From the NCBI GenBank assembly GCA_964504585.1, contig CAZDEW010000002.1, forward strand, positions 33,862 to 97,861: a DNA stretch of 64,000 nt, written 5' to 3'. The first letter of the stretch is position 1. The number at the start of each line of letters is the position of its first letter. This DNA is from an uncultured Pseudomonadales bacterium. Lineage in GTDB: Bacteria; Pseudomonadota; Gammaproteobacteria; Pseudomonadales; UBA7434. A program made the position numbers and the translations under genes. Below, in pieces: positions 48,229 to 64,000 of the stretch. Below the pieces are notes generated by a model, which saw only the letters and a program-made list of their open reading frames with translations, searched no databases and was not told the DNA's origin.

Positions 48229-48395
48229 GGCGTTTATTTTTGTAAGCAGTGGAAAAGAGGTGCTGATCAATTCGGCCTTCATTCACCCCATCAGCAATCT
48301 ATTCTCTGAACCTTTAAAGGTGAACAGACCACAGGGGGGGTTGTTGCTTAAATGCTGCGCAAATTATACTAAATGCTGGTGCGATTAACTTTAAT

Positions 48396-48410: not shown

Positions 48411-48573
48411 CTATACCTTAAGTACTGATATTGGCTCGAAAGCATTAGCGTCGTGTTAATCTGGGTTTATAAACAGCCTTTGGTGGTCACTCACAACGCT
48501 CAATTGCTTGAGTCGATCGTATTCGCGACTTTCCAATTTCTTGTGCAATAATTTTCAAATCCAGGAGTCTAGC

Positions 48574-49122
48574 ATGCATGTGTTAGCAGTTAATTTAGCA
48601 CTGCCATTGATGATCGTGATGGCCATCCAGTCACCTCTCGCCTCCGCAGGCTCGGTTAGCGATGCACAACAGAAAGTCGGTGCAACGTTACACAGCAAGA
48701 TAAGCTTGGCGATTGAAGATGTGCCATTGGGTGCTATGGCGCTCATAAAAAGCAGTTTTCCTGGGTTTCAGGCTGACGAGGTCGAGCAAGAGTCAAAGCA
48801 TGGCAACGTCTATCTGGATATCGAGGGGCAACTCGCGGGAAAGGAAACTGAGTTTGATCTTCTTCAGACGCCAGACGGGTGGAAGATTGTTGAAGTACAG
48901 CGTGACATTGAATGGCTAGCGCTGCCTGAGCAAGTTGCTGTAGAGTTCTCGGAAAAACAACCTGGTCCTAAGCCTGCGCGAATCATTGAGAGCGTACAGT
49001 ATGGGACAGCGATTACCATTTATGAGCTATATTTCGTCGATACCGCGGGCGTCGAATCGAAACAGGAGATTAAGTTTGAGGATGGTATGGCCGAACTGCT
49101 CGAGGCTGAATGGCAGCACTAG
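48574..49122 (+). CDS. secreted hypothetical protein (PepSY-like repeats possible)
   Basis: ORF 48508-49122. ATG 48574 preceded by AGGAG, giving MHVLAVNLALPLMIVMAIQSPLASAG (signal peptide). Confidence 0.45.
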   Translation: MHVLAVNLALPLMIVMAIQSPLASAGSVSDAQQKVGATLHSKISLAIEDVPLGAMALIKSSFPGFQADEVEQESKHGNVYLDIEGQLAGKETEFDLLQTPDGWKIVEVQRDIEWLALPEQVAVEFSEKQPGPKPARIIESVQYGTAITIYELYFVDTAGVESKQEIKFEDGMAELLEAEWQH

Positions 49123-49128
49123 TTCTTT

Positions 49129-50124
49129 TTGCGACGGGTTTTATTCCTTCGGGCTATGTGCGAAATAATCATTCGCCGCTCATTTGGGTTATGCAAAGCA
49201 TACACAGCAATATTGGATGCAGCATTGGGTAAAGTGATTACAAGGGCACATAGTTTAATATTTGGATATTTTTCTCTAGTCGTATTAAGCGGTTGCGTGC
49301 TTGTTCCTGAAAAAAACTCCACCATTTGGTCTGGATTAAGTAAGGCTGTACCCATTGGCGTGGTTGAGGGGCGTGAGTTGTCGATTAATCTCGCTTTTCC
49401 ATCCCAACTGTCTGCGACTCCGAGGCCTGTAGTGCTACTCATTCATGGTGGCGGGTTTGTTTCCGGAAGTAAGGATGATAAGAACCGACAAATTCTGAAG
49501 TTATCGGAGCTCGGTTTCGTGGCGGCGAGCGTCTCTTACGCGTTGGCACCGGACTACCGATTTCCCACAGCACTCGAAGATATCAAGCTCGCAATACGTT
49601 TTGTAAAGGCTAATGCGAGGGCCTTTCACATCGATTCAGACCGTATTCTAGTGAGCGGATCTTCTGCAGGGGGCTATTTGGCAGTGATGGCCGGCGTGAC
49701 GGGCAATGACGACAACTTCTCCGATTACGGGCTGTATGCGGAGTTCGACTCGACTGTTCGTGCTGTCGCTGCTCAGTCGGCGCCAATCGGTGATTTCCGT
49801 CTAGAGAAATATGGGAACAGGCCTTCGATAGAACGTTTGTTAGGATCCGATCCGCCGAACATCAAAGAGTCGATTCCTGAAGTCTCTCCATTTAGCTATC
49901 TGGACTCAGAAGATCCTGCGTTTTTTCTTTCCCATGGTGATAGCGATATTGTTGTCCCCGTAGAAATGAGCCGGGAGTTTGTTGAGGCTTTGAAAAATCT
50001 TGGTCATAGCTACGAATATCATGAGGTAGAGGGCGGTGGGCATAGTTTAAACCGCACAGCGCCCGATGAAGCGCGGCGGGTCTTCGAGGCCTATCTGAAT
50101 TTTTTGCATGCCTTCGCACAGTAG
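49129..50124 (+). CDS. alpha/beta hydrolase (esterase)
   Basis: 331 aa; start uncertain (possible lipobox VVLSGC). Motifs LIHGGGF and GSSAGG. Confidence 0.7.
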   Translation: MRRVLFLRAMCEIIIRRSFGLCKAYTAILDAALGKVITRAHSLIFGYFSLVVLSGCVLVPEKNSTIWSGLSKAVPIGVVEGRELSINLAFPSQLSATPRPVVLLIHGGGFVSGSKDDKNRQILKLSELGFVAASVSYALAPDYRFPTALEDIKLAIRFVKANARAFHIDSDRILVSGSSAGGYLAVMAGVTGNDDNFSDYGLYAEFDSTVRAVAAQSAPIGDFRLEKYGNRPSIERLLGSDPPNIKESIPEVSPFSYLDSEDPAFFLSHGDSDIVVPVEMSREFVEALKNLGHSYEYHEVEGGGHSLNRTAPDEARRVFEAYLNFLHAFAQ

Positions 50125-50292: not shown

Positions 50293-52938
50293 CTAAATTC
50301 GCAGCGATGATTTCTCAGCCGGGGGACGCATTCTACTGATGCGTTTCAAGCTAATGCCAATTAAACTCAAATAGCCCAAGAATAGAGCCCAGATTGGTAT
50401 CGGGATGATTTCTTCAACGGGTTCCACTCCTACCGTACTTTCAATCAGGACGTTAGTGAAAGTCAGGCCGTTGTCCGCGACGCCGGCACTGTTGGATGAA
50501 CCGAAGGCATTACTATTGACCCAAAAGCCTAGCATTCCAAAGTTGTTTGCTATTCCACTGGTGTCTGTTTCGGTATGGCTATCCAGGAGCCCGCCAGTTG
50601 CGAGGCTAAGCGAGCTGAAGAGTTCTACACTATCTGCACCGGTTCTGGTAATTGAGAAGATGCCGATGTAGTCGGTATTGGGCAGGAAGGCGTAGCCCGC
50701 GTCGGGAGAGCTCGACAGGCTCATCCACTCTGAGGTTGTGCCAAGAAATCGCCCGAGGCCGGAGGTTGTGTCATGTTTTCTGAAATCCGTGTCCTGGGTG
50801 CCGCCGCCCGCCGGGTCGACATCGAAAGACGTAAAGTAACCAGGCTGCCCAACATAGAGCGGATTGACAGAGCTTGAACTGGACGACTGATCAGCAGCGA
50901 GACCAGGGTCATTGAGGTCCATCAGGGCGATTTTGAAAGAGGTGCCGCCGACAGCGCCAACGGTCGCTGGGGTGGTAAAAGAGTAGGTTGCAGTGATGCT
51001 ATCGCCGACTTCCAGTGTTTGCGGTGCGAAGGTCGCGTGCATTCCGCGTCCTGAAGTGCCTGTGACCAGCCCCAGCGCTCCCGGAGAGATCTCGACATTG
51101 CTGCCGCTTGTTTGGCTGGATGACCACCAATCAGCGTCTAAAGCACCAGTACGCGCGCGGTTGCCGTCAGCAAAGAAATCGTCGACGATAGCTGTGCCGG
51201 GGTCGACAGTTGTAGTCTCGATCAAAACGTTGGTAAAGGTGAGGCCGTTGTCAGCGTTACCGGCAGAATTGGAAGAGCCGAAAGCATTGCTATTAGCCCA
51301 GAAGCCCAGCATGCCAAAGTTGTTGGCGATATTACTGACGTCGGTAGCTGTATGACTGTCGAGAACAGCTCCGCCGTCGAGTCTTAGCGAACTGAAAAGT
51401 TCGTGTGTATCGTTTCCGGTTCGTGTAATTCTGAGTGTTCCAACGTAGTTGGTGTTAGGTTGAAACGCATAGCCTGCATCGTCGGAGCTGGATATATTTG
51501 TCCATTCAGAGGTGGTGCCAAGAAATCTTCCAACGGTCGACGCTGTATCGTGCTTTCTGAAATCTGTATCCTGTGTTCCGCCTCCGCTCGCATCGACATC
51601 AAAGGACGTAAAGTAGCCCGGCTGGCCGACATAAAGCGGGTTAGCAGAACTGGAGCTGGATGACTGATCGGCAGCCAGCCCCGGATCGTTTAAATCCATC
51701 AAGGCGATCTTGAAGGAAGTGCCAGATGGTGAGCCAATAGTTGCTGGAGTCGTGAAGGAGTATGTCACGGTGATACTGTCACCAACTTCCAGAGTTTGAG
51801 GAGCGAAGGTCGCATGCATTCCGCGGCCTGAAGTGCCGGTCACCAAGCCTAGTGCTCCCGCTGATATCTCGACGTTGCTGCCGCTGGTTTGGCTCGACGA
51901 CCACCAATCTGCGTCCAGCGATCCGGTTCTCGTTCGATCGCCGTCGGCAAAGCTGTCATCAATAATTGTCGTAGTAGTGGTGGGTGTTTGCGGTTCCTCG
52001 ATACCATGCGAAACGTCCAGGGCGTAGAATGTAGCCTGTACGAATTCCGAGGCGATACCGCCATCGGTTGTATTGTTTTGGTTATACGCACCGGCCTTGA
52101 AGTACATAAAGTCATCAGCGACATCGTAGCCGCTTGATGACATATCGATATCAGCGGTACCAATGACAGGCCCGGTTAAGTCGCCAGATCGAATGGTCAC
52201 GGTTTGCTGGTTGCCAACCACTACCACTTCGTAGGACCAGAGCTCATCTAGAGCGATACCGTTGCTTGGATTAGAGGCACTATTGTCACTGCTCCCAATA
52301 ATTTCATAAATGATGTCGGCTCCGCCGCTGACTTCGTGGACAGCGTAGATGGATCCGTTGGTATTGCCGGGTAGCTTTCGGTAGTAGAGGCGTAGGGGTT
52401 CATCATCTTTAGCATGAATTTGGCCAACAACGACTCGACCAATCCTGCTTGAGTTTCCTGCTGTTGTCACTGCATTGACTGCCAGTGTAGCTTTCATGAC
52501 CCCATCAACGGCGCCCGCCGCATCTTGTGCTGCTTGTGGTGCACTCGAAAAAACCCAGTTGTTCAAGTTAGGTGTGCCGTCGGCATTGCGAGTATTGATG
52601 CTGGTGTCCCCGCGCCGGAGCATTTCACGAAATTCTGTTCGTGTGAAAGAGGAGTTAGGGGTCGTTGCGCCGGAGTTCGTTGCTTTAAAAACCATGCCAC
52701 CGTCGGCGGCCGTCCAGAAATAATTGTTGTCGACAAAACCGTTTGCTAGATCAACTTCATCGATACGTCTGGATTCCCCAGCCACGTCCTCCGGTGTATT
52801 CAAGTACCAGCCGAGTAGGTCAAAGTTTCCGCTCGGTGGGAGAGCTGGATCCAGCGATATCGCTTTTAATGGCAGCAATGCCAGAGCCAGAGTTGTAACG
52901 CCGAGGTTTGTGAACTTGCTGAATGCAGACGACTTCAT
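50293..52938 (-). CDS. PL7-family alginate lyase + two ~253-aa modules + PEP-CTERM-like tail
   Basis: 881 aa with a signal peptide. PL7 signature triad RTEFREML, VGQIHA, YFKAGAYNQ. Thr-rich linker, two modules, C-terminus IPIPIWALFLGYLSLIGISLKRISR. Confidence 0.85.
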   Translation of the reverse strand: MKSSAFSKFTNLGVTTLALALLPLKAISLDPALPPSGNFDLLGWYLNTPEDVAGESRRIDEVDLANGFVDNNYFWTAADGGMVFKATNSGATTPNSSFTRTEFREMLRRGDTSINTRNADGTPNLNNWVFSSAPQAAQDAAGAVDGVMKATLAVNAVTTAGNSSRIGRVVVGQIHAKDDEPLRLYYRKLPGNTNGSIYAVHEVSGGADIIYEIIGSSDNSASNPSNGIALDELWSYEVVVVGNQQTVTIRSGDLTGPVIGTADIDMSSSGYDVADDFMYFKAGAYNQNNTTDGGIASEFVQATFYALDVSHGIEEPQTPTTTTTIIDDSFADGDRTRTGSLDADWWSSSQTSGSNVEISAGALGLVTGTSGRGMHATFAPQTLEVGDSITVTYSFTTPATIGSPSGTSFKIALMDLNDPGLAADQSSSSSSANPLYVGQPGYFTSFDVDASGGGTQDTDFRKHDTASTVGRFLGTTSEWTNISSSDDAGYAFQPNTNYVGTLRITRTGNDTHELFSSLRLDGGAVLDSHTATDVSNIANNFGMLGFWANSNAFGSSNSAGNADNGLTFTNVLIETTTVDPGTAIVDDFFADGNRARTGALDADWWSSSQTSGSNVEISPGALGLVTGTSGRGMHATFAPQTLEVGDSITATYSFTTPATVGAVGGTSFKIALMDLNDPGLAADQSSSSSSVNPLYVGQPGYFTSFDVDPAGGGTQDTDFRKHDTTSGLGRFLGTTSEWMSLSSSPDAGYAFLPNTDYIGIFSITRTGADSVELFSSLSLATGGLLDSHTETDTSGIANNFGMLGFWVNSNAFGSSNSAGVADNGLTFTNVLIESTVGVEPVEEIIPIPIWALFLGYLSLIGISLKRISRMRPPAEKSSLRI
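50434..51189 (-). repeat. module copy C2
   Basis: Residues about 584-835 of the 881-aa protein (IVDDFFADGNRARTG...LTFTNVLIEST). Confidence 0.7.
51211..51966 (-). repeat. module copy C1
   Basis: Residues about 325-576 (IIDDSFADGDRTRTG...LTFTNVLIETT). Confidence 0.7.
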
Positions 52939-53150: not shown

Positions 53151-53284
53151 TTCTTCGGAGAAGTTTACTGCGTGCTTCTCGATCGTAATTGCAGGCCAAT
53201 CATTGACATCGCCAAGATCACGAGTGCTGCGAAAGGCGCCATCGGAACCACAATCGGTTTCGGTGGCAACGGTTGTGACTCACC

Positions 53285-54043
53285 GGTGCTTTCAATTAGA
53301 ACATTCGTGAAAACCAGGCCGTTGTCAGGATCGCCAGCTGTGTTTGACGAACCGAACGCATTGGCGTTTGCCCAGAACCCGACCATGCCGAAGTTATTGG
53401 CAATATCACTATTGTCGGTTGCTGTATGGCTATCAACCAATGCACCTCCTGCAATGCTCAGAGAGCTCGAGAGCGAATGACTGTTAGTGCCGGTTCTGGT
53501 GATGGAGAATACGCCCACGTAGTTTGTGTTCGGCAGGAATGCATAGCCTGCGTCACCCGAGCTAGAGATGCTATTCCATTCGGAGGTGGTTCCCAGGAAG
53601 CGACCCAGCGGCGATGTGACATCGTGTTTTCTGAAGTCGGTGTCCTGTGTGCCTCCACCTAATGAGCTGACATCAAACGCGGTAAAGTATCCTGGCTGAC
53701 CCACGTAAAGAGGGTTCACTTCACTAGAGCTTGAAGACTGGTCCGCCTGTAAACCGCCGTCGTTCAGATCCATCAGCGCAATTTTGAATGATGTGCTGGA
53801 AGGGTTTCCAATAGTGGAGGGTGTAGTGAACGAATAGGTCACGGTGATGTTGTCGCCGACATCCAGCACCTGCGGAGCAAAAGTCGCATGCATGCCGCGG
53901 CCGGAGGTGCCGGTAACAAGCGTTAGCGCACCGGGATCAATCTGCACGTTGCTGCCATCAGTCTGGCTTGAAGACCACCAGTCAGCATCCAAAGCGCCTG
54001 TGCTAACGCGGTTCCCATCTGCAAAGCTGTCGTCAATAACGGC
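53285..54043 (-). repeat. module copy D3
   Basis: Residues about 430-682 of the 721-aa ORF. Confidence 0.7.
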
Positions 54044-54061
54044 GTTAGAGACTTGAGCAGC

Positions 54062-54820
54062 GGTGCTTTGGATAAGTACATTCGTGAACGTGAGTCCATT
54101 GTCCGGTGTGCCCGCTGAGTTTGAAGACCCGAAGGCGTTCGCGTTAACCCAGAAGCCCAGCATGCCGAAATTGTTAGCGATCCCGATCGTGTCGCTAGCG
54201 GTATGACTGTCAAGCAGCGCGCCGCCGGCGAGGCTTAGCGAGCTAGAGAGATCGTGGCTATCCACTCCCGTCCGAGTGATAGTGAACGTACCCACATAAT
54301 CCGTGTTCGGTGCGAAAGCATAACCTGCGTCGGCAGAGCTTGAGATGCTAATCCACTCAGACGTTGTGCCGAGGAAACGACCGGAGATTGCCGCCGTATC
54401 GTGTTCTCTAAAGTCGGTATCCTGTGTGCCACCACCGACTGGATCGACATCGAAAGAAGTGAAATAACCGGGTTGACCAACGTATAGCGGGTTGGGCGTG
54501 CTGGAGCTGGAAGATAGATCGTCGGCGAGCCCTGGATCGTTAAAATCCATCAGAGCAATCTTGAACGAAGTAGAAGACACGGCCCCAACAGTTGCGGGAG
54601 TCGTGAATGAATAAGTCACTGAGATGCTATCGCCAATTTCCAGTGTCTGTGGAGTGAAAGTGGCGTGCATGCCCCGGCCCGATGTGCCAGTGACGAGCGT
54701 CAGACCACCCGGTGCAATTTCTAAATTACTACCGCTGCTTTGACTCGAAGACCACCAGTCAGCGTCAAGTGCGCCTGTGCTAGTACGATTGCCGTCCGCG
54801 AAGCTGTCGTTGATAATAGC
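54062..54820 (-). repeat. module copy D2
   Basis: Residues about 171-423 of the 721-aa ORF. Confidence 0.7.
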
Positions 54821-54838
54821 GTTGGCGACGGGTGCCGC

Positions 54839-55620
54839 GGTGGTCTCAATCGTCACATTAGTAAATATCAGTCCATTATCAGGCGTGTTCGCTACATTCG
54901 ATGAGCCGAATGTATTGCCATTGACCCAGAACCCGAGCATGCCAAAGTTATTGGCGATTGCGCTAGAGTCGGTCGTAGTATGCGTATCGAGTAGCGCACC
55001 GCCTGCAAGGCTGAGTGAGCTCGTTAGTTCGTTGGTGTCTGTTGCCGTTCGGGTGATAGTAAAAACGCCAACGTAGTTTGTATTCGGCGCGAAGGCGTAA
55101 CCTGCGTCGGAAGAGCTGGACATACTGGTCCACTCAGACGTTGTACCCAGAAACCGGCCAACAGGCGAGGTGATGTCGTGCTTTCTAAAATCGACGTCCT
55201 GCGTGCCGCCACCTACGGTGTCGACGTCGAAGGCTGTGAAGTATCCTGGCTGGCCGACGTAGAGTGGGTTGGGCGTACTAGAGCTCGAAGAAAGATCAGC
55301 AGCAAGCCCTGGATCATTAAAGTCCATCAACGCGATCTTGAAAGAAGTGAACGGGCACTACTTACTCATGAAAAACAGTATCCTACAGTAGCCGGCGTGG
55401 TGAACGCGTAGGTTACGGTAATGCTGTCGCCAACATCTAATGTTTGCGGCGTAAACGTGGCGTGCATGCCGCGTCCTGATGTGCCTGTGACGAGCGTCAG
55501 CGACCCAGGATCAGCCTGAACATTGGACCCGCTGGTTTGGCTCGAAGACCACCAGTTGGCATCAAGCGCACCCGTACTGGTGCGGTCTCCGTCGGCGAAA
55601 CTGTCGTTGATAATCTCGGC
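54839..55620 (-). repeat. module copy D1 (interrupted)
   Basis: Starts in ORF 55366-55701 (EIINDSFADGDRTSTG) and ends at residue about 164 of the 721-aa ORF (LIFTNVTIETT). Confidence 0.65.
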
Positions 55621-55812
55621 AGCGTGCGCGCCGGTAGACATCACTGCAGCGCAAAGTACCGCCGACGCTGAATTGCGAAGCGCGGAATGAAGGAATTTCA
55701 TGGCATTACCTCTTTTACTTATTGTCGAAGTGGAGCGCGGGCTCTAAAGGTTCAAGAGCTCTTATCGTTAAGGGTTAAACCTTACCCAACTGCATTTCAC
55801 ACAGTCAAACGA

Positions 55813-56133: not shown

Positions 56134-56892
56134 ATGAAAGCTGCCGATAAAAGACTGTACCGAAGCGTCGCGAATACCTTGCTTAAACTCATACATTCGG
56201 GGGAGTTTCCGCCGGGCATTCGTTTACCAGCTGAGCGCGTGCTCGCAGAGCGATTCGGCGTAAGCCGGCCTACCATTCGTGAGGCTATCATTGCGCTTGA
56301 AGCCAAAGGGTTTTTGGAAGTCAAGACCGGCTCCGGGGTCTATGTTCTAGAACCAAAGGACGAGCTTCAGGGTCTAGCGGGTTTAATGAGTCCTTTTGAA
56401 CTCATTGAAGCGCGAGTGCTGTTAGAGGGTGAGGCTGCGGCTCTGGCGGCGGTTATGATTACGCCAGAGCAACTGGCTGACTTGGCCAGTGCGCTTGAAG
56501 AAATGGCCAGCGAAAACTTGCAACACAATCAGGGGTCGACAGTTGCGGATCGGAAATTCCATTCAATTATTTCCGAGGCTGCGAATAATCGCGTGCTTTC
56601 ACTGTATATAACGCAGCTATGGGACGTACAGGAAGAGCAGAATCATATTAACCTCGCGCACCGCGCAATTTGCATGCAGGATGCGCCGCGTCGATTATCT
56701 GAGCATAAAGCCATTTATGATGCGATTAGCAAAAAAGATTCGGCGGCAGCAAGGATTGCTATGCGGAATCACTTTTCACGCACGCTAACCGCTTTGCATG
56801 AGACGAACGAAGAAGTTGCGGTATCCGAAGTGCGTCGAGAAGTTTCTAAGATGCGTGAGCGCTTCTCCATGGATAGGCTCACGTTAAACTAA
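56134..56892 (+). CDS. GntR-family (FadR/FCD subfamily) transcriptional regulator
   Basis: 252 aa. N-terminal wHTH LPAERVLAERFGVSRPTIREAIIALEAKGFLEV and a helical FCD-like C-terminal domain. Confidence 0.9.
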   Translation: MKAADKRLYRSVANTLLKLIHSGEFPPGIRLPAERVLAERFGVSRPTIREAIIALEAKGFLEVKTGSGVYVLEPKDELQGLAGLMSPFELIEARVLLEGEAAALAAVMITPEQLADLASALEEMASENLQHNQGSTVADRKFHSIISEAANNRVLSLYITQLWDVQEEQNHINLAHRAICMQDAPRRLSEHKAIYDAISKKDSAAARIAMRNHFSRTLTALHETNEEVAVSEVRREVSKMRERFSMDRLTLN

Positions 56893-57067: not shown

Positions 57068-57082
57068 ATTGGTCAGACAAGT
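57068..57082. promoter_or_regulatory. candidate GntR-type operator (ATTGGTCAGACAAGT)
   Basis: The left half ATTGGTC is perfect. Lies about 105 nt upstream of the TonB-dependent receptor ATG. Confidence 0.4.
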
Positions 57083-57185
57083 TTGTTTGACATATTTACG
57101 TGCCATCGAGTACATTCTCGCCGAACAATGCGGCCCTTACCGTTTTGGTGTTTTAGAAAATACTAATAAGAGGAGTGAGTTACCG

Positions 57186-60100
57186 ATGAGAACGCATACC
57201 CTGCGCGAATATGCAATAGGTAAGACCAGGTCAACAGGTAAGACCAAGAGTAAGAAAACGACGCTAGCCAACTCAATATTGGCAGCTCTTGTGCTGCCAA
57301 CTGCGCCTGGAGTTTTGTTTGCTCAGGCTGAAGTGGAAGAAAAAGCCATCGAAGAGGTCGTTGTAACCGCAGGTCCCCGTTCGACGATCCAGAAATCGAT
57401 TGAACTAAAGCGCAACTCTTTACAAATCGTCGATGGCTTGAACGCCGAAGAAATCGGAGAGATACCGGCGCTCTCTATTGGTGAGGCATTGGAAACTTTG
57501 ACCGGTGCAGCATCGCACCGTGAAAATGGTGGCGCGACGGAAGTCTCCATTCGTGGTTTGGGTCCATTTTTGACAAGCACGGTTTTTAACGGGCGCGGTG
57601 CGACCAACGGTGCGGGTAACCGCGCGGTTAACTTTAGTATTTTCCCTTCCGAGTTATTCAACAAGGTCGCGATTCACAAGACCCAGTCTGCAAGCAATAT
57701 TGAAGGTGCGGTTGGTGGTCAGATTCATCTGGATACCCGTCGACCGATTGAATACGGAAAAGAGCGTTTTCAATTTGGCTTGAAGGGTGCGTATAACGAA
57801 GGGCAGCAGGATGTTGTTGGAGCTTCTGACATCGGCCACCGAGCAACGGCGAGTTATATCAATTCATTTGAGACTGAAGACTATGGCACCTTTGGTTTTT
57901 CGATAGGCTTTCAGACTCGCGAAGAGAGTGATCCGGAGCAGGAATTTACGCGCAGTAATACGCCGAGGATTTGTGATGTTGATAACGGCGTACCGACCTC
58001 AACTGTGTGTTCCGACAATGAACGAGAACTACGGGATCCAGACCCTTCTACTGACCGCGAATTTGCATTTTTATCTAACTCCGCGGTTTTTCGTCAAAAT
58101 CGGGCGGAAGATGAGCGTAATGCTGTTTTCGGCGCCTTGCAATGGCAGCCTGATGATCGCTGGGATCTGAATCTGGATTTCCAGTGGTCTGAGCGGATCC
58201 AGGATGAAAGGCGCTCAGACCTTGTTTTTTCAGAACTCAATCGAAATTTGAATAACGCTACCAGCGTCGATGTGTCTGGTGGTTTTCTTCAATCCTTTGA
58301 GGATGCGCAGCAAGAAATTCAATTGATAGGCCAGGACTTCGTTCGAGATGAAAAGTACAAGGGAATTGGTTTCAACGTCGAGTATCTGGTTAACGATGAC
58401 CTGGAAGTATCATTTGATGTCGCTTACTCCGATACCAGAAGGGTAGAGACCGAAGAGAGTCTTCGTTTGGCCGACGAAGTAGAGAGGGTTGTGAGCGCCG
58501 ATTTCACGAGAGGTGATGTCGGCATCTTTGAGGTCACACAAATCGGTGGTGCGGCTTTCGATGCCAGTGACCTAGGTGAGTTTTTAAGTGGCGCAACAGC
58601 TGACGGAGTTGGAAGTACTGCAGCGGATTTTCAGGCGGCATTCGCAAACGATGGCGACTTTGATGATCGTTTGCGCGCTCGCGTGCAGGAGGACATTCGG
58701 GACAATACGCTGTTGGCGTACCGGGGTGATTTCGATTGGCAGACCTATGATCTGGGCGTTATAAAGAGCATAGAGGGCGGTGTTAGAGTTGCGGAGATGG
58801 AATATAGTCGCAAGGGCAATATCAATTCAGATTTCAATCTGAACAACGATGCTCTTGGTGGCGGTGGATCAGTAGATCAGGCGAATCTGCTTGCGGCGAT
58901 TGCGAATAACTGTATCGACGGTCCGATTGATAACGACTTTACCGAAGTTTCTTCATCTCAGGGTGAGCGTTTCCTGAATTACAATTCCATTGATGCGGGT
59001 TGCTCCTTGGATCTGGTTAGATTGGCTTTAGAGGCGAGAGGGGAATCAACAGATCCGCTAACTCCTAATAATAAGTTTAATGGCTCAAGTGTGGATGTCG
59101 AGGAATCCACCTATGCGGCGTATATCAAGTTCAATTATGAATCTGAGCTGTTCGGATTTCCCGCTCGCGGCGACTTTGGTCTGCGCGTTGTACGGACGTC
59201 AGTAGATTCAAGAAGCTTCTCTACACCATTTAGACTTGATTATGATGACAGTGATGGGGGTAGCTTTGAACTCGATAGCGGCTTTGGCAGCAGTTCTATC
59301 ACTGTGAACAAGGAGTCTCATTCGTATACGAACTATTTGCCGAGCGCCAGCCTTGTTCTTGATCTAAAAGACGATCTGCTCTTTAGGGCTGGCATCTTTC
59401 GTGGTATCTCACGCTCTGACCCCGCGATCTTAGGTACGAGGCAGCAGGTGGGTACCGTTCAGCGTGATATTGAAGACGCGGCTACTCTCGGCGGCGAAAA
59501 TCTCACACTTGACGATATAAGAACATTTATAACGACTCAGGGGCGTAGCGGTGGGTCTGCCGATCTAGACGCGTTCACATCCTGGAACGTAGATCTGGCT
59601 CTTGAGTGGTATCCCAACTCCGATACCATTTTAGCGGCGGGTGTCTACTTCAAACGCTTCAAAGGCGGTTACCAAAACACGTTTGTGGAAAATACTTTTA
59701 CCGTCGTTAGTGATGGAAGTAGTGACACCATAGATGTGCTTAATACGAACCTCAGTGGTGATTTCGCCGACGGTGCAGGAGGTGTATACGAGATCACTGC
59801 TCCTATTAGTTCTGTAGAGACAACCGATGAGAGTAGCAACTTGTACGGCTTCGAGCTTTCAGCTTCTCATTCGCTTGCTTATCTGGATGGTTTTCTGGGT
59901 GGGTTTGGCGGCAAGTTGGGCTATAACTTTGCCGATTCTGATTTCGAGTTCGAAGACGACTTTGCTGGTGCCGGTGTTGGCTTTGATGATGCTGGTAATG
60001 AGGTTCAACTCGTTGGTTTGGTCCCGCCAGCCGACATCTTTGGCCTGTCGCGCCATGTCTTTTCCGGTCAGATCTACTGGGATAACGGTATCTTCGATGC

Positions 60101-60356
60101 TGCAGTGCTCTACAAATACCGTTCGCAGTACTTCCAGCAGTTCGTGGACGATCCTGGTCGTATCCGTTATACCGATGATAACGCGGTTGTTGAGTTCAAA
60201 TCGAAGTTAAGGCTTAACAAAAATATCCAGCTGACCTTCGAGGCTTTAAATATTACCGATGAGCCTCGAATTGACTATCGAGGGCTGGAAGGAAATATCG
60301 CGAACGTCTATTCCTATGGGGCGAGGTACTTCCTGGGTGTCAGAGGCAAGTTTTAA
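57186..60356 (+). CDS. TonB-dependent receptor
   Basis: ORF 57069-60356. ATG 57186 preceded by AAGAGGAG. Signal peptide, plug motifs (IEEVVVTA, DGLNAEEIGEIPALSIGEAL, VSIRGLG), C-terminal ...YFLGVRGKF. Confidence 0.9.
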   Translation: MRTHTLREYAIGKTRSTGKTKSKKTTLANSILAALVLPTAPGVLFAQAEVEEKAIEEVVVTAGPRSTIQKSIELKRNSLQIVDGLNAEEIGEIPALSIGEALETLTGAASHRENGGATEVSIRGLGPFLTSTVFNGRGATNGAGNRAVNFSIFPSELFNKVAIHKTQSASNIEGAVGGQIHLDTRRPIEYGKERFQFGLKGAYNEGQQDVVGASDIGHRATASYINSFETEDYGTFGFSIGFQTREESDPEQEFTRSNTPRICDVDNGVPTSTVCSDNERELRDPDPSTDREFAFLSNSAVFRQNRAEDERNAVFGALQWQPDDRWDLNLDFQWSERIQDERRSDLVFSELNRNLNNATSVDVSGGFLQSFEDAQQEIQLIGQDFVRDEKYKGIGFNVEYLVNDDLEVSFDVAYSDTRRVETEESLRLADEVERVVSADFTRGDVGIFEVTQIGGAAFDASDLGEFLSGATADGVGSTAADFQAAFANDGDFDDRLRARVQEDIRDNTLLAYRGDFDWQTYDLGVIKSIEGGVRVAEMEYSRKGNINSDFNLNNDALGGGGSVDQANLLAAIANNCIDGPIDNDFTEVSSSQGERFLNYNSIDAGCSLDLVRLALEARGESTDPLTPNNKFNGSSVDVEESTYAAYIKFNYESELFGFPARGDFGLRVVRTSVDSRSFSTPFRLDYDDSDGGSFELDSGFGSSSITVNKESHSYTNYLPSASLVLDLKDDLLFRAGIFRGISRSDPAILGTRQQVGTVQRDIEDAATLGGENLTLDDIRTFITTQGRSGGSADLDAFTSWNVDLALEWYPNSDTILAAGVYFKRFKGGYQNTFVENTFTVVSDGSSDTIDVLNTNLSGDFADGAGGVYEITAPISSVETTDESSNLYGFELSASHSLAYLDGFLGGFGGKLGYNFADSDFEFEDDFAGAGVGFDDAGNEVQLVGLVPPADIFGLSRHVFSGQIYWDNGIFDAAVLYKYRSQYFQQFVDDPGRIRYTDDNAVVEFKSKLRLNKNIQLTFEALNITDEPRIDYRGLEGNIANVYSYGARYFLGVRGKF

Positions 60357-60552
60357 CGATTAACTGAATTGTTAAAGTCAGCGGGCTTTTACTCGACGGT
60401 ATCGAGTTCTGAAAGGAACAACAGACAACGCTTAGGTCGCTGCTTGATTTGACATCAACTGAAAAAGCATATGCTTTGAATTCGGCAATAGAAGTTTGTA
60501 ACGAACCTGACAACTCATTGCTGTATTCCTGTGAACTTTAAGGTGGAATAAA

Positions 60553-62841
60553 ATGAAAATAAAATTCTTGGGTTTAGTCGTATTGCTGGCGATTGTTATG
60601 GGTTGCGAAACCGGTAGCGATAGTGATAGCAATAATTCCGCAACCAATCAGGCGGGCAGCGTAGCTATAACCGGTACCCTGGAGGTCGGTGAAGAGCTTA
60701 CTGCGGTATTGTCGGATCCGAACGGAACGTTCTTTTCAGGATCCACTGCGGGAATCAGCTCGATTGCCTGGTTTGCAGACGGGGTAGAGATCATTGGCGC
60801 CAGCGAATTGTTCTACACACTGACAGCTGCGGAGCTGGGTGCAGAAATCACGGTTGCAATCGCCTATGAAGATAACGCAGGCTTCGCAGAATCAGTTACT
60901 TCTGATCCTACCGCAGTAGTTACCAATGCCGGTGGCGGCGGACCGACCTCGACTTTAGCGGCGGTAATCCGTGACACCAATGCTAGCGACACCGGCGAAC
61001 TTCGTTACGATATACCAGCGGCAATGCGAAGTCTCTCCGGTCGGCTGGTGGTTTCTTTTACGAGAACCTCAACCGGTCCGGATGCTTTTATTGCCTTGTT
61101 GAATTCAACGGGCAGCACGAGTAGTGAACGAGCGATTCTTGATTTGCGAATCAAGGATGACGAATTCGAGGTTCGTGACCAGACCTTTGCGGTCACTGCG
61201 GTGACACCGACACCTGGTACAGTGCAGGAAGTCGTGGTTGAGTGGGATGCGCCGACTTTGCTGGTGCCGCCCACAGTAACTGTTACGATTGATGGTGTTC
61301 CGATAGCAGCGCCATTTACCGCAGGTGCTAATGCCACCGGCGGCGTTGAGCGCGTGCAGTTCCGCTTCGGCGACAACGGTAACGTGTCGAATGCGACCGA
61401 CACGTTTACGATTACCGAGTTCGAGGTGTTTGGCGATACTGCGGGAACGATGTCGATTTTTGCCGATGACTTCTCTGGCTTTAGCGATGGTGACTCGCTC
61501 GATGACGACAACCCGCTCTCACCCTATAACGGTAGTACCAGTGAGGCTGTGGTCGAGGAGATTGGCGGCGGCTCTGGCGGTGGTGGTAGCTCTACGCTTG
61601 CCGCGGTTATTCGAGATACCAATGCAAGTGATACTGGTGAGTTACGCTATGACCTGCCTGCAGCCCAGCTTTCAGGTCGTCTGGAAGTGTCCTACGACCG
61701 CACGGCTACTGGCCCTGACGCGTTTATCTCGCTACTTAACTCGACCGGCAGCACGAGTAGTGAGCGTTCCATCCTGGACTTGCGCATCAAAACCGACGAG
61801 TTTCAAGTTCGCGATCAGACCTTTTCGGTAACGGCTGTGACGCCGACTCCGGGTACGGTGCAGGATGTTGTGGTCGAGTGGACGGCGCCTGATGCGTCGA
61901 CGCCACCGACGGTCACGGTCACGGTAGATGGCATTGCCATTGCGCCTCCATTCACTTCTGGCATCAACGCCATCGGCGGTGTTGAGCGAGTGCAGTTCCG
62001 CTTCGGCGATAACAGCGGTGTGTCAGCAGCTACGGATACTTACACCATCACAGAGTTTGAAGTCTTTAGCGATACCGCGGGAACAACATCGGTATTCGCC
62101 GACGACTTTAGCGGCTTTAGCGATGGCGATTCGCTCGACGACGACAACCCGGCATCGCCCTACAACGGCAGCACCAGCGAGGCTGTGGTCGAAGCGATAG
62201 GCGGTGGCTCGGGTGGTGGCAGCTCTACGCTTGCCGCAGTTATTCGCGATACTAATGCCAGCGACACCGGTGAATTACGTTACGACGTGCCCGCCGCGCA
62301 GCTCACAGGTCGCCTTGAGGTTTCCTATGATAGAACGGCAACCGGTCCCGATGCGTTTATTTCGCTTCTGAATTCAACCGGCAGTACCAGTAGCGAGCGT
62401 TCGATACTGGATTTGCGTATCAAAACTGGCGAGTTTCAGGTTCGAGATCAGACCTTTTCGGTGACGGCTGTGACGCCGACTCCGGGTACTGTGCAGGATG
62501 TCGTAGTCGAGTGGACGGCGCCCGATGCGGTGACCCCACCAACCGTCACAGTCACGGTCGATGGTATCGCTATTGCACCACCATTTACTTCTGGTGTGAA
62601 CGCGATTGGCGGTGTCGAGCGTGTGCAATTCCGTTTCGGTGATAACAGCGGCGTATCCGCGGCCACAGATACCTACACCATCACAGAGTTTGAGGTCTTT
62701 AGTGATACGGCGGGAACAACCTCGGTATTCGCTGATGACTTTACCGGGTTTAGCGATGGAGACTCTCTGGACGATGACAATCCTGCTTCGCCTTATAACG
62801 GCAGTACCAGTGAAGCAGTGGTTGAGGCGTATAGCGGTTAA
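60553..62841 (+). CDS. lipoprotein with an N-terminal Ig-like region and three tandem ~211-aa modules (candidate surface glycan-binding protein)
   Basis: 762 aa. Lipobox LLAIVMGC. Modules begin STLAAVIRDTNASDTGELRYD and are separated by GGGSGGG linkers. Confidence 0.7.
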   Translation: MKIKFLGLVVLLAIVMGCETGSDSDSNNSATNQAGSVAITGTLEVGEELTAVLSDPNGTFFSGSTAGISSIAWFADGVEIIGASELFYTLTAAELGAEITVAIAYEDNAGFAESVTSDPTAVVTNAGGGGPTSTLAAVIRDTNASDTGELRYDIPAAMRSLSGRLVVSFTRTSTGPDAFIALLNSTGSTSSERAILDLRIKDDEFEVRDQTFAVTAVTPTPGTVQEVVVEWDAPTLLVPPTVTVTIDGVPIAAPFTAGANATGGVERVQFRFGDNGNVSNATDTFTITEFEVFGDTAGTMSIFADDFSGFSDGDSLDDDNPLSPYNGSTSEAVVEEIGGGSGGGGSSTLAAVIRDTNASDTGELRYDLPAAQLSGRLEVSYDRTATGPDAFISLLNSTGSTSSERSILDLRIKTDEFQVRDQTFSVTAVTPTPGTVQDVVVEWTAPDASTPPTVTVTVDGIAIAPPFTSGINAIGGVERVQFRFGDNSGVSAATDTYTITEFEVFSDTAGTTSVFADDFSGFSDGDSLDDDNPASPYNGSTSEAVVEAIGGGSGGGSSTLAAVIRDTNASDTGELRYDVPAAQLTGRLEVSYDRTATGPDAFISLLNSTGSTSSERSILDLRIKTGEFQVRDQTFSVTAVTPTPGTVQDVVVEWTAPDAVTPPTVTVTVDGIAIAPPFTSGVNAIGGVERVQFRFGDNSGVSAATDTYTITEFEVFSDTAGTTSVFADDFTGFSDGDSLDDDNPASPYNGSTSEAVVEAYSG
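60949..62838 (+). repeat. three tandem coding repeats (starts 60949, 61591, 62224; periods 642 and 633 nt)
   Basis: Direct comparison of nucleotide and protein sequence. Copies 2 and 3 are almost identical at protein level. Confidence 0.85.
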
Positions 62842-62967
62842 AAGACGAGGGCGCACGAAGTAGCAGAAGGCCAATGTAAATTAGCCGTTATCTCAAGGCA
62901 AAGCAGAGCTGTTTTATCGTGAGGTTTTGAGCTGGTCGCACTTTGGATCTCATGATCGCGCAAATGA

Positions 62968-64000
62968 ATGATGACTATGCGAGCTATATTGCCGGTTACG
63001 ATCCTAATTGCAGTGGTCGGGTGTTCTGGGGGCGGCGCTAGCGGCAGTGGCGTTGGCGGCTCTGGCGTCGGCACCAGCAGCGGCGCCGCGACATCGGGCG
63101 GAACGGGGCCATCCCAAACACCAGAGGAAATTGCCGAACAGTTTGGTCTGGATCCTTCCTTGCCACCGGGGGAAAACTTTGATTTGCTGAGCTGGAACCT
63201 CAATACCCCAGCAGCAGACAGTCGCGGCTTGTCCCAGCGTTTTGATGAAGATGATCTGGCTTCTGGCTTTACTGATCCTGACTATTTTTGGACCGGTGAA
63301 GACGGTGGTATGGTCTTTCGGGTCACCAATGCGGGCGCGACCACCTCGGCAGGTTCGATATACACCCGAAGCGAGCTGCGAGAGATGCTGCGACGCGGCA
63401 ATACCAACATCAATACGCGCAATAGCGACGGTACACCTAATCTCAACAACTGGGTTTTTTCTAGCGCGCCTTTATCAGCGCAAAATAGTGCGGGTGGTAT
63501 TGATGGGGAGCTGAAGGCGACCCTGGCTGTCAATGCGGTTACTAGTTCTGGAAGCGATAGCCGTGTTGGAAGAGTTATTGTTGGTCAGATTCATGCCAAA
63601 GATGATGAGCCAGTCAGGCTGTACTACAGAAAACTGCCCGGTAATTCGCGAGGCTCGGTTTATGCCGCACATGAAATAAGCGGCGGCGATGACATCTATT
63701 TTGAGATACTTGGGAGTCGAAGCAATAGTGCTTCTGATCCCGCAGCAGGTTTTGCTCTAGATGAAATCTGGTCTTACGAGATTCTCGCCGTAGGTAATCA
63801 ACTTACGGTGACAATACGCTCTGGAGATTTAGAGGGACCAGTCTTGGGTAGGGCTGAGGTCGACATGGGTCTTAGCGGCTACGATGTTGCAGATGACTTC
63901 ATGTACTTTAAAGCTGGAGCGTACAATCAGAACAACACGAGTGATGGTGGCCTGGGCGAGGATTATGCTCAAGTGACGTTTTATGCGTTGGAAGCAAGCC
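62968..64000 (+). CDS. PL7-family alginate lyase lipoprotein (3' end outside window)
   Basis: Not in ORF track because it is open-ended. Own translation from ATG 62968 (TGA immediately upstream): MMTMRAILPVTILIAVVGCSGGGASGSG... then ...YTRSELREML...VGQIHAKDDEP...YFKAGAYNQ, with no stop up to 64000. Collinear with the PL7 domain of the 881-aa protein. Confidence 0.85.
   Translation, partial: MMTMRAILPVTILIAVVGCSGGGASGSGVGGSGVGTSSGAATSGGTGPSQTPEEIAEQFGLDPSLPPGENFDLLSWNLNTPAADSRGLSQRFDEDDLASGFTDPDYFWTGEDGGMVFRVTNAGATTSAGSIYTRSELREMLRRGNTNINTRNSDGTPNLNNWVFSSAPLSAQNSAGGIDGELKATLAVNAVTSSGSDSRVGRVIVGQIHAKDDEPVRLYYRKLPGNSRGSVYAAHEISGGDDIYFEILGSRSNSASDPAAGFALDEIWSYEILAVGNQLTVTIRSGDLEGPVLGRAEVDMGLSGYDVADDFMYFKAGAYNQNNTSDGGLGEDYAQVTFYALEAS

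Follow-up and report, generated by a model that had tools for sequence, protein, structure and literature searches.

How can three tandem modules of one bacterial protein remain so alike in amino acid sequence when the DNA encoding them has diverged widely, and what would such a protein do next to a TonB-dependent receptor (TBDR)? The question is raised by a gene near one end of a 64,000-nucleotide stretch of DNA from an uncultured Pseudomonadales bacterium, the whole of which we call the window. Our preferred reading, to which we assign a probability of roughly 0.6, joins a role of the encoded lipoprotein as alginate-binding partner of the receptor with an evolutionary course of old duplication, purifying selection and rare exchange between the copies.

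A lipoprotein with three tandem modules

The gene and its parts are as follows.

60553–62841, + strand: open reading frame of a 762-residue lipoprotein (from the translation)
60541–60546, + strand: Shine-Dalgarno-like AGGTGG, 6 nt 5′ of the ATG at 60553 (sequence read directly)
60553–60606, + strand: lipoprotein signal peptide MKIKFLGLVVLLAIVMGC with lipobox VMG-C and Cys18 (from the translation)
60652–60927, + strand: Ig-like β-sandwich domain, approximately residues 34–125 (AF2 model, weak ZirU match, tblastn)
60949–61590, + strand: module R1, 214 residues including a GGGSGGGGS linker
61591–62223, + strand: module R2, 211 residues, predicted ConA-like β-jelly roll (AF2, Foldseek against PDB)
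62224–62841, + strand: module R3, 205 residues (62224–62838), then the stop codon

The translation bears out the open reading frame, the lipobox and the three tandem modules of a preliminary description made from the DNA letters. The N-terminus, MKIKFLGLVVLLAIVMG-C18, agrees with the lipobox pattern [LVI][ASTVIM][GAS]C of Lgt/LspA substrates, and signal peptide and lipobox together mark the product as a predicted bacterial lipoprotein. A lipobox cysteine lies near residue 18 in 95 of the 108 homologues that start with M. Residue +2 of the window lipoprotein is Glu and not Asp, the latter being the inner-membrane retention signal at this position in E. coli.

The Ig-like domain comes after a tether rich in Ser, Asp and Asn and before a linker rich in Gly; in the full-length AF2 model (pLDDT 85–95) it has β-strands over residues 36–116. 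NCBIfam ZirU matches this region weakly (residues 29–134), and tblastn finds the domain in 33 of 79 related loci. All 33 family-conserved residues, four arginines and Trp97 among them, are retained in each of R1, R2 and R3.

Genomic neighbourhood and relatives

The lipoprotein gene lies between a receptor gene and a lyase gene.

57069–60356, + strand: TonB-dependent receptor of the TIGR01782 Xanthomonas/Caulobacter-type subfamily, with a 196-nt gap to the lipoprotein gene downstream
56134–56892, + strand: GntR/FCD-family regulator, with a homologue in 17 of the 79 related loci
62967–64000, + strand: PL7 alginate lyase downstream of the lipoprotein gene, with a lipobox of its own (…IAVVGCSGG…), running past the window end (from the translation)
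50293–52938, − strand: 881-residue PL7 alginate lyase (Pfam Alginate_lyase2, E=2.9e-50; translation)

The gene order is thus TBDR, module gene, PL7, and PL7 genes flank the module gene on both sides. The downstream lyase shows the motifs RSELREM, QIH and YFKAGAYNQ in the sequence as read and translated; the 881-residue lyase bears two copies of a second, unrelated module of ∼259 residues. A scan for promoters and terminators gave sites no more frequent than in shuffled sequence, and on the + strand it placed no terminator between the genes for receptor and lipoprotein, which may possibly be co-transcribed.

The relatives form a small family of lipoproteins, mostly from marine Gammaproteobacteria, and carry one to four modules, the long homologues having large Ig/cadherin-like N-terminal regions. 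Cultured bacteria with members of the family include Paraglaciecola hydrolytica S66, Saccharophagus degradans 2-40 (WP_011469274) and Rheinheimera, and ∼30 three-module genes come from Alteromonadales. Within flanks fetched to a length of up to 7 kb, 65 of the 79 related loci contain a TBDR homologue and 58 contain a PL7 lyase; in loci listing both genes, the TBDR homologue directly abuts the module gene, either upstream or downstream. The module is also fused to lyases, namely PL6 in P0104 and P0119 and PL7 in L027 and L029, and a Bacteroidota relative (P0131) has a T9SS secretion tail. The conserved synteny and the lyase fusions strengthen the likening, made at the outset, of the gene beside the receptor to the surface glycan-binding proteins of polysaccharide utilisation loci; a place next to a TBDR within a CAZyme locus is what characterizes that class, to which the protein would belong by its gene context. 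In literature on alginate and VCBS proteins, on gammaproteobacterial surface glycan binding and on Saccharophagus accessions, we found no characterisation of the family.

Module fold and family identity

The AF2 model of R2 (mec9921fcb16f) is all-β, with a pLDDT of 93.7 and a pTM of 0.90, and the module is confidently predicted to be a ConA-like two-sheet β-jelly roll. Foldseek searches of PDB and BFVD yielded jelly rolls of lectins, glucanases, LamG domains and pentraxins as best matches (probability 1.0, TM 0.45–0.54). The PDB matches include lyases and other enzymes (GH16, PL7, PL36) besides lectins, with sequence identities of 10–16%, and these similarities to solved proteins hold at the level of the fold only. 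In the full-length AF2 model, whose pTM is 0.40, R3 has a pLDDT >90; the low confidence of R1 there is due solely to its lack of coverage in most rows of the alignment.

At the sequence level the module, which the preliminary description had been unable to name, could indeed be matched to none of the families in Pfam, the CBMs or PDB. The window modules gave no match at threshold among the families of Pfam, NCBIfam and PDB; no CBM came up among the PDB chains, all of which were searched with phmmer and with profiles (E up to 1 and 10), and the Pfam models Ricin_B, CBM_4_9 and F5_F8_type_C had no match in them. Sequence similarity would therefore not place the modules among the alginate-binding families CBM13, 16, 32 and 96. 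Laminin_G_3 and PF06439 are each matched by 4 of 31 family members (best E=8e-5 and 0.009, respectively; sub-threshold in P0185 for the former and in P0009 for the latter), and neither matches the window modules.

Three other assignments were considered and rejected. A degenerate PL7 domain had been suspected from the motifs GELRY and FRFGDN; HHalign, given the module profile and an alignment of 59 PL7 sequences, returned a probability of 0.1%, Alginate_lyase2 had no match in the window modules, which are thus not assigned to PL7, and the conserved columns of the family contain no invariant Tyr, His or Lys. PF26614 is a precomputed tag that, out of 120 homologues, only the window protein carries, and it therefore cannot be the shared module. 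Homologues go by the name of VCBS repeat protein in databases; repeats of the VCBS or cadherin-like kind are absent from the window protein (no match to VCBS or Cadherin_4), and the name stems from the long N-terminal regions of ∼1215-residue homologues (PF17803 in some), not from the module.

Divergence among the modules

The starting observation concerned R2 and R3, and it was accurate: 25 of their first 40 codons differ, 23 of them synonymously and two with an exchange (L/V, S/T). The count for a later 28-codon stretch is likewise confirmed, with the frame starting one base after the position of about 61812 given for it.

61813–61896, + strand: low-divergence stretch of R2 (R3 partner 62446–62529), 5 of 28 codons differing, all synonymously

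The longest exact DNA run common to R2 and R3 (26 nt, at 61831/62464) lies within this stretch; the longest runs of the other pairs are 20 nt (R1–R2) and 11 nt (R1–R3).

Full-length comparisons by the Nei-Gojobori method gave, for R2–R3, 96% amino acid and 82% nucleotide identity (pS 0.61, dS 1.28, dN 0.027), with ω 0.021 and a bootstrap confidence interval of 0.006–0.042. R1 has 84% amino acid and 71% nucleotide identity to R2, with synonymous sites saturated (pS 0.80), and 81.5% and 72% to R3 (pS 0.74). Near-identity in protein, claimed for the whole array, thus holds for R2 and R3 and does not extend to R1, which differs from the other two modules at 34–38 residues. The DNA of the repeats is so diverged that Tandem Repeats Finder detects no array in the window.

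Strong purifying selection on each module and old divergence had both been proposed, and both agree with the full-length estimates: ω is 0.02–0.04, synonymous codon choice in R1 versus R2 and R3 equals chance, and R2–R3 have reached a dS of 1.28. In orthologous comparisons of the module domain, ω has a median of 0.09 and a minimum of 0.004; the constraint on the window modules, within the lower tail of these values, is strong yet normal for the family. A neighbouring, unrelated repeat protein has the same pattern, with synonymous saturation. Among database entries the best orthologues are ∼60–68% identical to the window protein and none is close, and the duplications can therefore not be dated against a species split.

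Exchange between the copies

Of three max-χ2 tests, one was significant (p=0.0006); it places a breakpoint between R1 and R2 at codon column 177. Sites sorted by three-way pattern cluster as well (p=0.003 and 0.03), the lower value belonging to the pattern R1=R2≠R3, and the two results delimit one segment.

62113–62223, + strand: C-terminal segment of R2 (R1 partner 61477–61590), from max-χ2 and clustered R1=R2≠R3 sites

In this segment R1 and R2 are unusually similar and R3 differs, which makes it a candidate for an old conversion or unequal-crossover segment. The heterogeneity of R2/R3 divergence is marginal (p=0.037 for the window range, 0.36 for the longest run and 0.94 for runs), and we do not regard the low-divergence stretch at 61813–61896 as a clear conversion tract. 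Of the local gene conversion suspected earlier, exchange between copies is thus retained, by virtue of the R1/R2 breakpoint and the clustered sites, and the R2/R3 tract in which it had been seen is not. The evidence for conversion within the window gene is modest.

The family adds to it. The comparison took in 79 genome loci and ∼130 pairs of modules. Pairs that lie in one protein and exceed 60% amino acid identity are 65–93% identical; their dS ranges from 0.28 to saturation and their ω from 0.045 to 0.22. Several lineages have an inter-module dS as low as 0.28–0.35, which indicates recent homogenisation at the DNA level. Between close species, positional orthologues are more similar than the modules inside one protein. 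Where orthologues are less than 0.7 identical, they are just as similar as modules compared across positions, and the modules inside one protein are more alike (0.78–0.87). Identity within a protein remains near 0.8 as orthologues drop to 0.42–0.68.

In quartets, states shared within a species exceed the cross pattern ∼6–85-fold for amino acids and 2–3-fold for synonymous codons, a synonymous excess that species-specific codon usage explains in part. Inter-module codon identity is 61% at shared-derived residues and 53% at ancestral ones (pooled Fisher p=0.002). Both kinds of family test, which draw on phylogenetically non-independent proteins, speak for gene conversion. Modules of one protein are closer to each other than to distant orthologues and bear traces of exchange at the DNA level, which together denote concerted evolution, and this evolution is slow and patchy.

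Origin of the pattern

The evolutionary history of the sequence pattern is largely shown by these comparisons: the pattern is real and is explained by ordinary strong selection together with rare copy-to-copy exchange of DNA. A tandem duplication would have parted R1 from the ancestor of R2 and R3, long enough ago to randomise synonymous sites, and R2 and R3 would have separated later (dS ∼1.3). Afterwards strong purifying selection on each copy (ω ∼0.02–0.04) would have kept the proteins 82–96% identical as the DNA dropped to 71–82%, and rare, short gene-conversion or unequal-crossover events may have produced the mosaic that is clearest in the C-terminal segment of R1 and R2. About 26 nt is the minimal length for efficient RecA recombination in E. 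coli; since the identical runs reach 26 nt at most, further homogenisation or deletion should be rare.

Selection against long identical repeats, already raised as an option in the preliminary description, would instead have actively recoded the DNA at constant protein sequence, on account of RecA-mediated deletion and slippage. Such selection would merely hasten the approach to saturation, and it fits the shortness of the identical runs and an array that stayed stable long enough to saturate. Yet codon identity at conserved residues never lies below chance in the window (z +0.7 to +5.8), and the lowest z across family module pairs with >60% amino acid identity is −0.8, so that codon identity equals or exceeds the chance expectation both in the window and across the ∼130 pairs. 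Orthologous modules of different species, moreover, attain the same dS with similar ω, for which time and purifying selection are enough, and the unrelated repeat protein next door is equally saturated; we consider active recoding highly improbable. Selection at the protein level alone, by co-evolution or parallel substitutions under a shared ligand or symmetric packing, would dispense with DNA exchange altogether. It could account for the species-specific shared amino acid states, for a within-protein identity that outlasts that of orthologues and for synonymous sites that are often saturated. The more frequent reuse of the same codon at shared-derived residues, however, is predicted by DNA transfer and not by independent parallel substitution, several lineages have the low inter-module dS given above, and the full-length model shows no confident packing between modules (pTM 0.40), all of which makes this explanation quite improbable. 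We therefore prefer duplication, purifying selection and rare exchange.

Proposed function

From its sequence and gene context, the window lipoprotein is best read as a probable multivalent alginate-binding partner of the TBDR. The modules would be non-catalytic binding domains for alginate or oligo-alginate, strung on Gly/Ser linkers, whose tandem copies would confer avidity for a repetitive polyanionic polymer, and the lipoprotein would hold substrate at the receptor in the manner of the SusD/E/F-type proteins of Bacteroidota. Its exposure at the cell surface is an assumption.

Two other functions have to be weighed. The modules might be catalytic and constitute a new jelly-roll family of alginate lyases or hydrolases, a notion to which the alginate-degradation locus, the many conserved Asp and Arg residues and the Foldseek matches to PL36 Aly36B, PL7 AlgAT5 and GH16 lichenases lend some appeal. 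The profile comparison with PL7 and the conserved columns lacking an invariant Tyr, His or Lys speak against it, as does the finding that the modules are joined to genuine catalytic domains of PL6 and PL7 and occur in two to four tandem copies, which is usual for binding modules, and catalysis is very unlikely. Alternatively, the lipoprotein could face the periplasm from the outer or inner membrane and capture oligo-alginates after their passage through the receptor, or it could be an algal-surface adhesin unrelated to uptake. A periplasmic orientation is the default topology of proteobacterial lipoproteins, Glu in place of the retention signal at residue +2 is in keeping with these alternatives, and the large N-terminal regions of the long homologues are typical of adhesins. 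Tight synteny with the TBDR in either direction and fusions to secreted lyases, on the other hand, fit extracellular substrate capture, and together with the T9SS secretion tail of P0131 they render a periplasmic or adhesive role unlikely.

Schemes of alginate loci in Gammaproteobacteria usually comprise, to our knowledge, lyases, a TonB-dependent receptor and an MFS transporter; a protein devoted to substrate capture does not feature in them. The lipoprotein family described here, which is conserved and uncharacterised, accompanies the alginate TBDR across several orders of marine bacteria. We tentatively propose, at somewhat less than even odds, that in marine Gammaproteobacteria (Alteromonadales, Cellvibrionales, Woeseiaceae) the lipoproteins with two to four copies are the missing SusD/SGBP-equivalent partner of the alginate TBDR. 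Selection for binding sites that are multivalent and uniform would then lie behind the number of modules and their slow concerted evolution. Should the modules bind alginate, they would represent a new CBM/SGBP family, provide a marker gene by which metagenomes could be screened for alginate uptake, and be a candidate affinity tool.

Comparison with known systems

The SusD, SusE and SusF proteins of Bacteroidota PULs are a close functional parallel. As with these, the window lipoprotein gene is directly beside a TonB-dependent (SusC-like) transporter, and like SusE/F the protein has tandem β-sandwich modules on flexible linkers and a presumed role in substrate capture. The locus is of gammaproteobacterial type, however, without SusD, there is no sequence relation, and the modules are predicted ConA-like jelly rolls, whereas SusD has a TPR fold and SusE/F have Ig-like CBMs.

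The alginate-binding families CBM13/16/32/96, which are appended to alginate lyases, are also β-sandwiches and often tandem, and some relatives have the window-type module in fusion with PL6 or PL7. CBM96 binds alginate through basic residues (PMC9971899), and the window-type module conserves four Arg; it is larger, however (∼200 residues), occurs mostly in stand-alone lipoproteins and has no sequence match to these families. Its predicted fold is that of the ConA-like superfamily (LamG/LNS, pentraxin, galectin, GH16, PL7, DUF1080/PF06439), from whose solved members it differs in a sequence identity of only 10–16%, no Pfam match at threshold and no PL7 signature, the catalytic blocks of PL7 being R(S/T/N)EL, Q(I/V)H and YFKAG(V/I)YNQ.

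In its evolution the array recalls polyubiquitin, whose tandem repeats, identical in protein and different at synonymous sites, are reportedly maintained by strong purifying selection with birth-and-death or occasional homogenisation. The window modules likewise combine very low dN with high dS, and repeats within a gene are closer than distant orthologous repeats. The pattern is instructive and accounted for by known processes, a clean bacterial example of tandem domains that remain near-identical in protein beyond the time of synonymous saturation under slow, patchy homogenisation. The differences from polyubiquitin are that the units are of ∼210 residues and 82–96% instead of 100% identical, that they belong to a bacterial, putative surface protein, and that homogenisation is so slow that synonymous sites often saturate.

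A lipoprotein with three tandem modules

The gene directly downstream of the TonB-dependent receptor (TBDR) gene encodes a protein of 762 residues and is preceded by a Shine-Dalgarno sequence (AGGTGG) 6 nt 5' of its ATG. The protein starts with a lipoprotein signal (MKIKFLGLVVLLAIVMG-C, Cys18), followed by a tether rich in Ser, Asp and Asn, a β-sandwich domain with a weak match to the ZirU family, a Gly-rich linker and three modules arranged head-to-tail.

60553–62841 (+), lipoprotein ORF, 762 aa
residues ~34–125, β-sandwich domain, pLDDT 85–95 in the full-length AF2 structure model
60949–61590 (+), module R1, 214 aa
61591–62223 (+), module R2, 211 aa
62224–62838 (+), module R3, 205 aa

Tandem Repeats Finder reports no array at the module period in this gene, the copies having diverged too far in DNA.

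Fold and conserved residues of the module

The window modules match no Pfam or NCBIfam model, and sequence and profile searches yielded no relative in the PDB. An AF2 model built from an alignment of 31 module sequences is all-β and very confident (pLDDT 93.7, pTM 0.90). In Foldseek searches against the PDB, this model matched only ConA-like jelly rolls, with TM-scores of ~0.5 and 10–16% identity: GH16 lichenases, pentraxins, LNS/LamG domains, galectins and the alginate lyases Aly36B (PL36) and AlgAT5 (PL7). A viral structure library gave the same fold class, and a few family members have sub-threshold matches to Laminin_G_3 or PF06439. Among the residues conserved in the family, Asp and Arg abound and one Trp is invariant (D9, D14, E17, R19, D43, D63, R65, R74, W97, D113, R137, N141, D161, D172); R1, R2 and R3 each retain every one of the 33 conserved positions.

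Two more specific identities were considered. The motifs 'TGELRY' and 'FRFGDN' are unsupported as relics of PL7 blocks (profile-profile probability 0.1%), and for CBM96 (PMC9971899) or another known alginate CBM the PDB searches gave no sequence or profile match. A literature search found no paper describing the family. The module represents a ConA-like family that is uncharacterised and linked with the uptake of alginate.

Family and genomic context

A search of 5.8 billion proteins returned 166 relatives; the window protein forms a singleton cluster, with the next best matches 45–62% identical. An exhaustive search of representatives gave only 119 clusters at 50% identity, and the family is therefore small. 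Its modules are always C-terminal, in one to four copies, behind variable N-terminal regions, among them long Ig/cadherin-like stretches (named 'VCBS' in databases), PKD repeats and DUF1080-like domains. Among homologues starting with M, 95 of 108 have a lipobox Cys near residue 18, and a T9SS tail is present in one relative from Bacteroidota. Two relatives, P0104 and P0119, are PL6 lyases bearing the module, and in two loci a PL7 domain and two modules share one ORF.

L027, 4943–7631, Alteromonadaceae isolate 271
L029, 4928–7625, Glaciecola sp. MH2013

The modules in these two ORFs are mutually just 65–67% identical and fully saturated.

The comparison covered 79 genome loci, each retrieved with at most 7 kb of flanking sequence at either end; their sources include Woeseiaceae, Glaciecola/Paraglaciecola, Rheinheimera, Shewanella and Luminiphilus/Halieaceae. 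Within these flanks, a homologue of the window TBDR occurs in 65 loci and a PL7 homologue in 58; where both the TBDR and the module gene are listed, they abut directly, in either order. The neighbours in the window are:

50293–52938 (−), PL7 protein of 881 aa
56134–56892, GntR/FCD regulator
57069–60356, TBDR of the TIGR01782 subfamily
from 62967, PL7 lipoprotein

The window locus is an alginate-utilisation locus, and the module protein belongs to its syntenic core. A pectate-lyase-fold protein with DUF4955 and a BD-FAE/α-β hydrolase esterase (45784–48282 (−) and 48508–50124 (+)) may be further polysaccharide-processing genes. In the region 57069–57185 (+), the listed TBDR start is a TTG 38 codons 5' of an ATG (~57183); the ATG-initiated protein reads 'MRTHTLREY…', with a signal-like hydrophobic stretch further downstream, and this later ATG is probably the true start.

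The locus contains a second tandem-module family, unrelated to the jelly-roll modules (50293–52938 (−) and 53165–55701 (−)). Its unit of ~259 aa ('DSFADG.R..TG.LDADWWSSSQ … FKIALMD.NDPGL … FTNVLIE') has no Pfam model above threshold; the 881-aa lyase carries two of them after its PL7 domain, and the neighbouring protein consists of three to four. These repeats are 76–78% identical in amino acids with saturated synonymous sites (pS 0.77–0.86), the same divergence pattern as in the lipoprotein. The multi-repeat gene is interrupted at 55330–55366 (−), where the reading frame changes between two ORFs:

55366–55701 (−), reads '…TTPATVGYCFS*'
53165–55330 (−), reads '…SFKIALMDFNDPGL'

Intact copies read '…TTPATVGAVSSTSFKIALMD' at this point, and the break is a frameshift, so that the gene is a pseudogene or the assembly is wrong here. 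Both second-module proteins end in PEP-CTERM-like tails (50293–50400 (−) and 53165–53270 (−)) with a Pro-rich motif, a hydrophobic helix and a basic end ('IPIPIWALFLGYLSLIGISLKRISRMR' and 'VPMAPFAALVILAMSMIGLQLRSRSTQ'), suggesting that an alginate lyase is sorted by an exosortase-type route.

Constraint and synonymous divergence

The preliminary description counted 25 differing codons in the first 40 of R2 and R3, and five, all synonymous, in a later stretch of 28. Both counts are correct (23 of the 25 are synonymous, the others L/V and S/T); the in-frame coordinates of the stretch are 61813–61896 and 62446–62529, one base later than first reported. Full-length Nei-Gojobori estimates show that near-identity in protein, claimed for all three modules, applies to R2 and R3 but not to R1.

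Pairwise divergence of the three modules
R2–R3: aa 96%, nt 82%, pS 0.61, dS 1.28, dN 0.027, ω 0.021 (CI 0.006–0.042)
R1–R2: aa 84%, nt 71%, pS 0.80, dS saturated, dN 0.126, ω not estimable
R1–R3: aa 81.5%, nt 72%, pS 0.74, dS ~3.6, dN 0.131, ω ~0.04

The modules are under purifying selection and their divergence is old, largely as proposed. The low ω of R2–R3 is normal for this domain. Across the family, within-protein pairs above 60% amino-acid identity share 65–93% of their residues; their dS runs from 0.28 to full saturation and their ω from 0.045 to 0.22. No paralogue pair is more extreme than R2–R3 at 0.021, a value still within the spread seen for orthologous modules of different species (median 0.09, IQR 0.07–0.115, minimum 0.004). 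The domain is simply under strong constraint.

Recoding could also reflect selection against long identical DNA repeats, the alternative raised originally. At residues conserved between two modules, we counted identical codons and set the count against the expectation for independent draws, in each copy, from the codon usage of this gene. R1–R2 (70 observed, 64–66 expected) and R1–R3 (70 observed, 60–62 expected) are indistinguishable from chance (z 0.7–1.6), hence fully saturated, whereas R2–R3 (102 observed, 71–73 expected, z ~4.5–4.8) retain residual common ancestry. Codon identity fell below chance neither in the window modules nor in ~130 module pairs above 60% amino-acid identity from related loci (lowest z −0.8); there is therefore no positive signal for such selection, and this alternative finds no support.

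Exchange between modules

Patchy conversion had been proposed from the R2/R3 stretch. That tract is only marginally unusual by the range of 25-codon windows (p=0.037) and unremarkable by longest run (p=0.36) and runs test (p=0.94), but some conversion is indicated elsewhere in the gene, which is a mosaic. In a three-way analysis, sites with R1=R2≠R3 cluster at module codons ~170–205 (p=0.003) and sites with R1=R3≠R2 at codons ~11–55 (p=0.03). With max-chi2, a breakpoint between R1 and R2 falls at codon column 177 (p=0.0006); past it these two are far more similar to each other, leaving R3 as the outlier. The test was not significant for R1–R3 (p=0.07) or R2–R3 (p=0.11). The breakpoint fits an old R1–R2 conversion and also a hybrid middle copy from unequal crossing-over; its signal has been worn down by later synonymous change.

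Across the family, positional orthologues of closely related species are more alike than modules inside one protein, and homogenisation is absent on this timescale. Where orthologue identity is below 70%, within-protein identity (0.78–0.87) exceeds that of orthologues (0.42–0.68), the latter being the same as identity across positions; no positional orthology is left. Concerted evolution in this family is slow. R1, R2 and R3 are each other's closest relatives, equidistant (63–67%) from the modules of the nearest protein, at locus L002. In species-pair quartets, states shared by both modules of a species exceed a homoplasy control ~6–85-fold for amino acids and 2–3-fold for synonymous codons, the latter figure being inflated by species-specific codon usage. 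The same codon is used at 61% of lineage-specific versus 53% of ancestral shared residues (pooled Fisher p=0.002), as predicted by DNA transfer and not by independent parallel substitution. The quartet and shared-residue tests thus point to DNA exchange between modules.

Five loci (L007, L024, L034, L049, L050), including Rheinheimera maricola and Bowmanella denitrificans, combine low synonymous divergence between tandem modules (dS 0.28–0.35) with only 83–93% amino-acid identity (ω 0.11–0.22). Homogenisation seems to have been comparatively recent in these lineages, which would be the best choice for mapping conversion tracts.

Proposed role and comparison with known systems

We propose alginate or oligo-alginate as the ligand of the modules, which would bind it by way of their conserved Arg, Trp and Asp residues, possibly with Ca2+. 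On flexible linkers, three copies would bind such a repetitive polyanion with avidity; no fixed packing of modules is seen in the full-length AF2 model (pTM 0.40). The lipid anchor would place them by the TBDR. The 196-nt gap after the receptor contains no terminator-like site on the + strand and no convincing promoter. The receptor-associated, glycan-binding-like role suggested earlier appears largely right by analogy, the module gene being syntenic with the TBDR and the module being fused to lyases in some relatives, and the proposed analogue is the surface glycan-binding proteins of Bacteroidota. The family is a worthwhile biochemical target.

Identical DNA runs between the modules are now at most 26 nt. 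A minimal length for efficient recombination is known in E. coli, and by this measure RecA-dependent exchange should be inefficient, which would explain why the copies drift apart at silent sites. Known processes account for the evolutionary pattern, which is best described as strong purifying selection overlaid by infrequent, patchy gene conversion or re-duplication. In this the lipoprotein modules resemble polyubiquitin, of which that pattern is classic.
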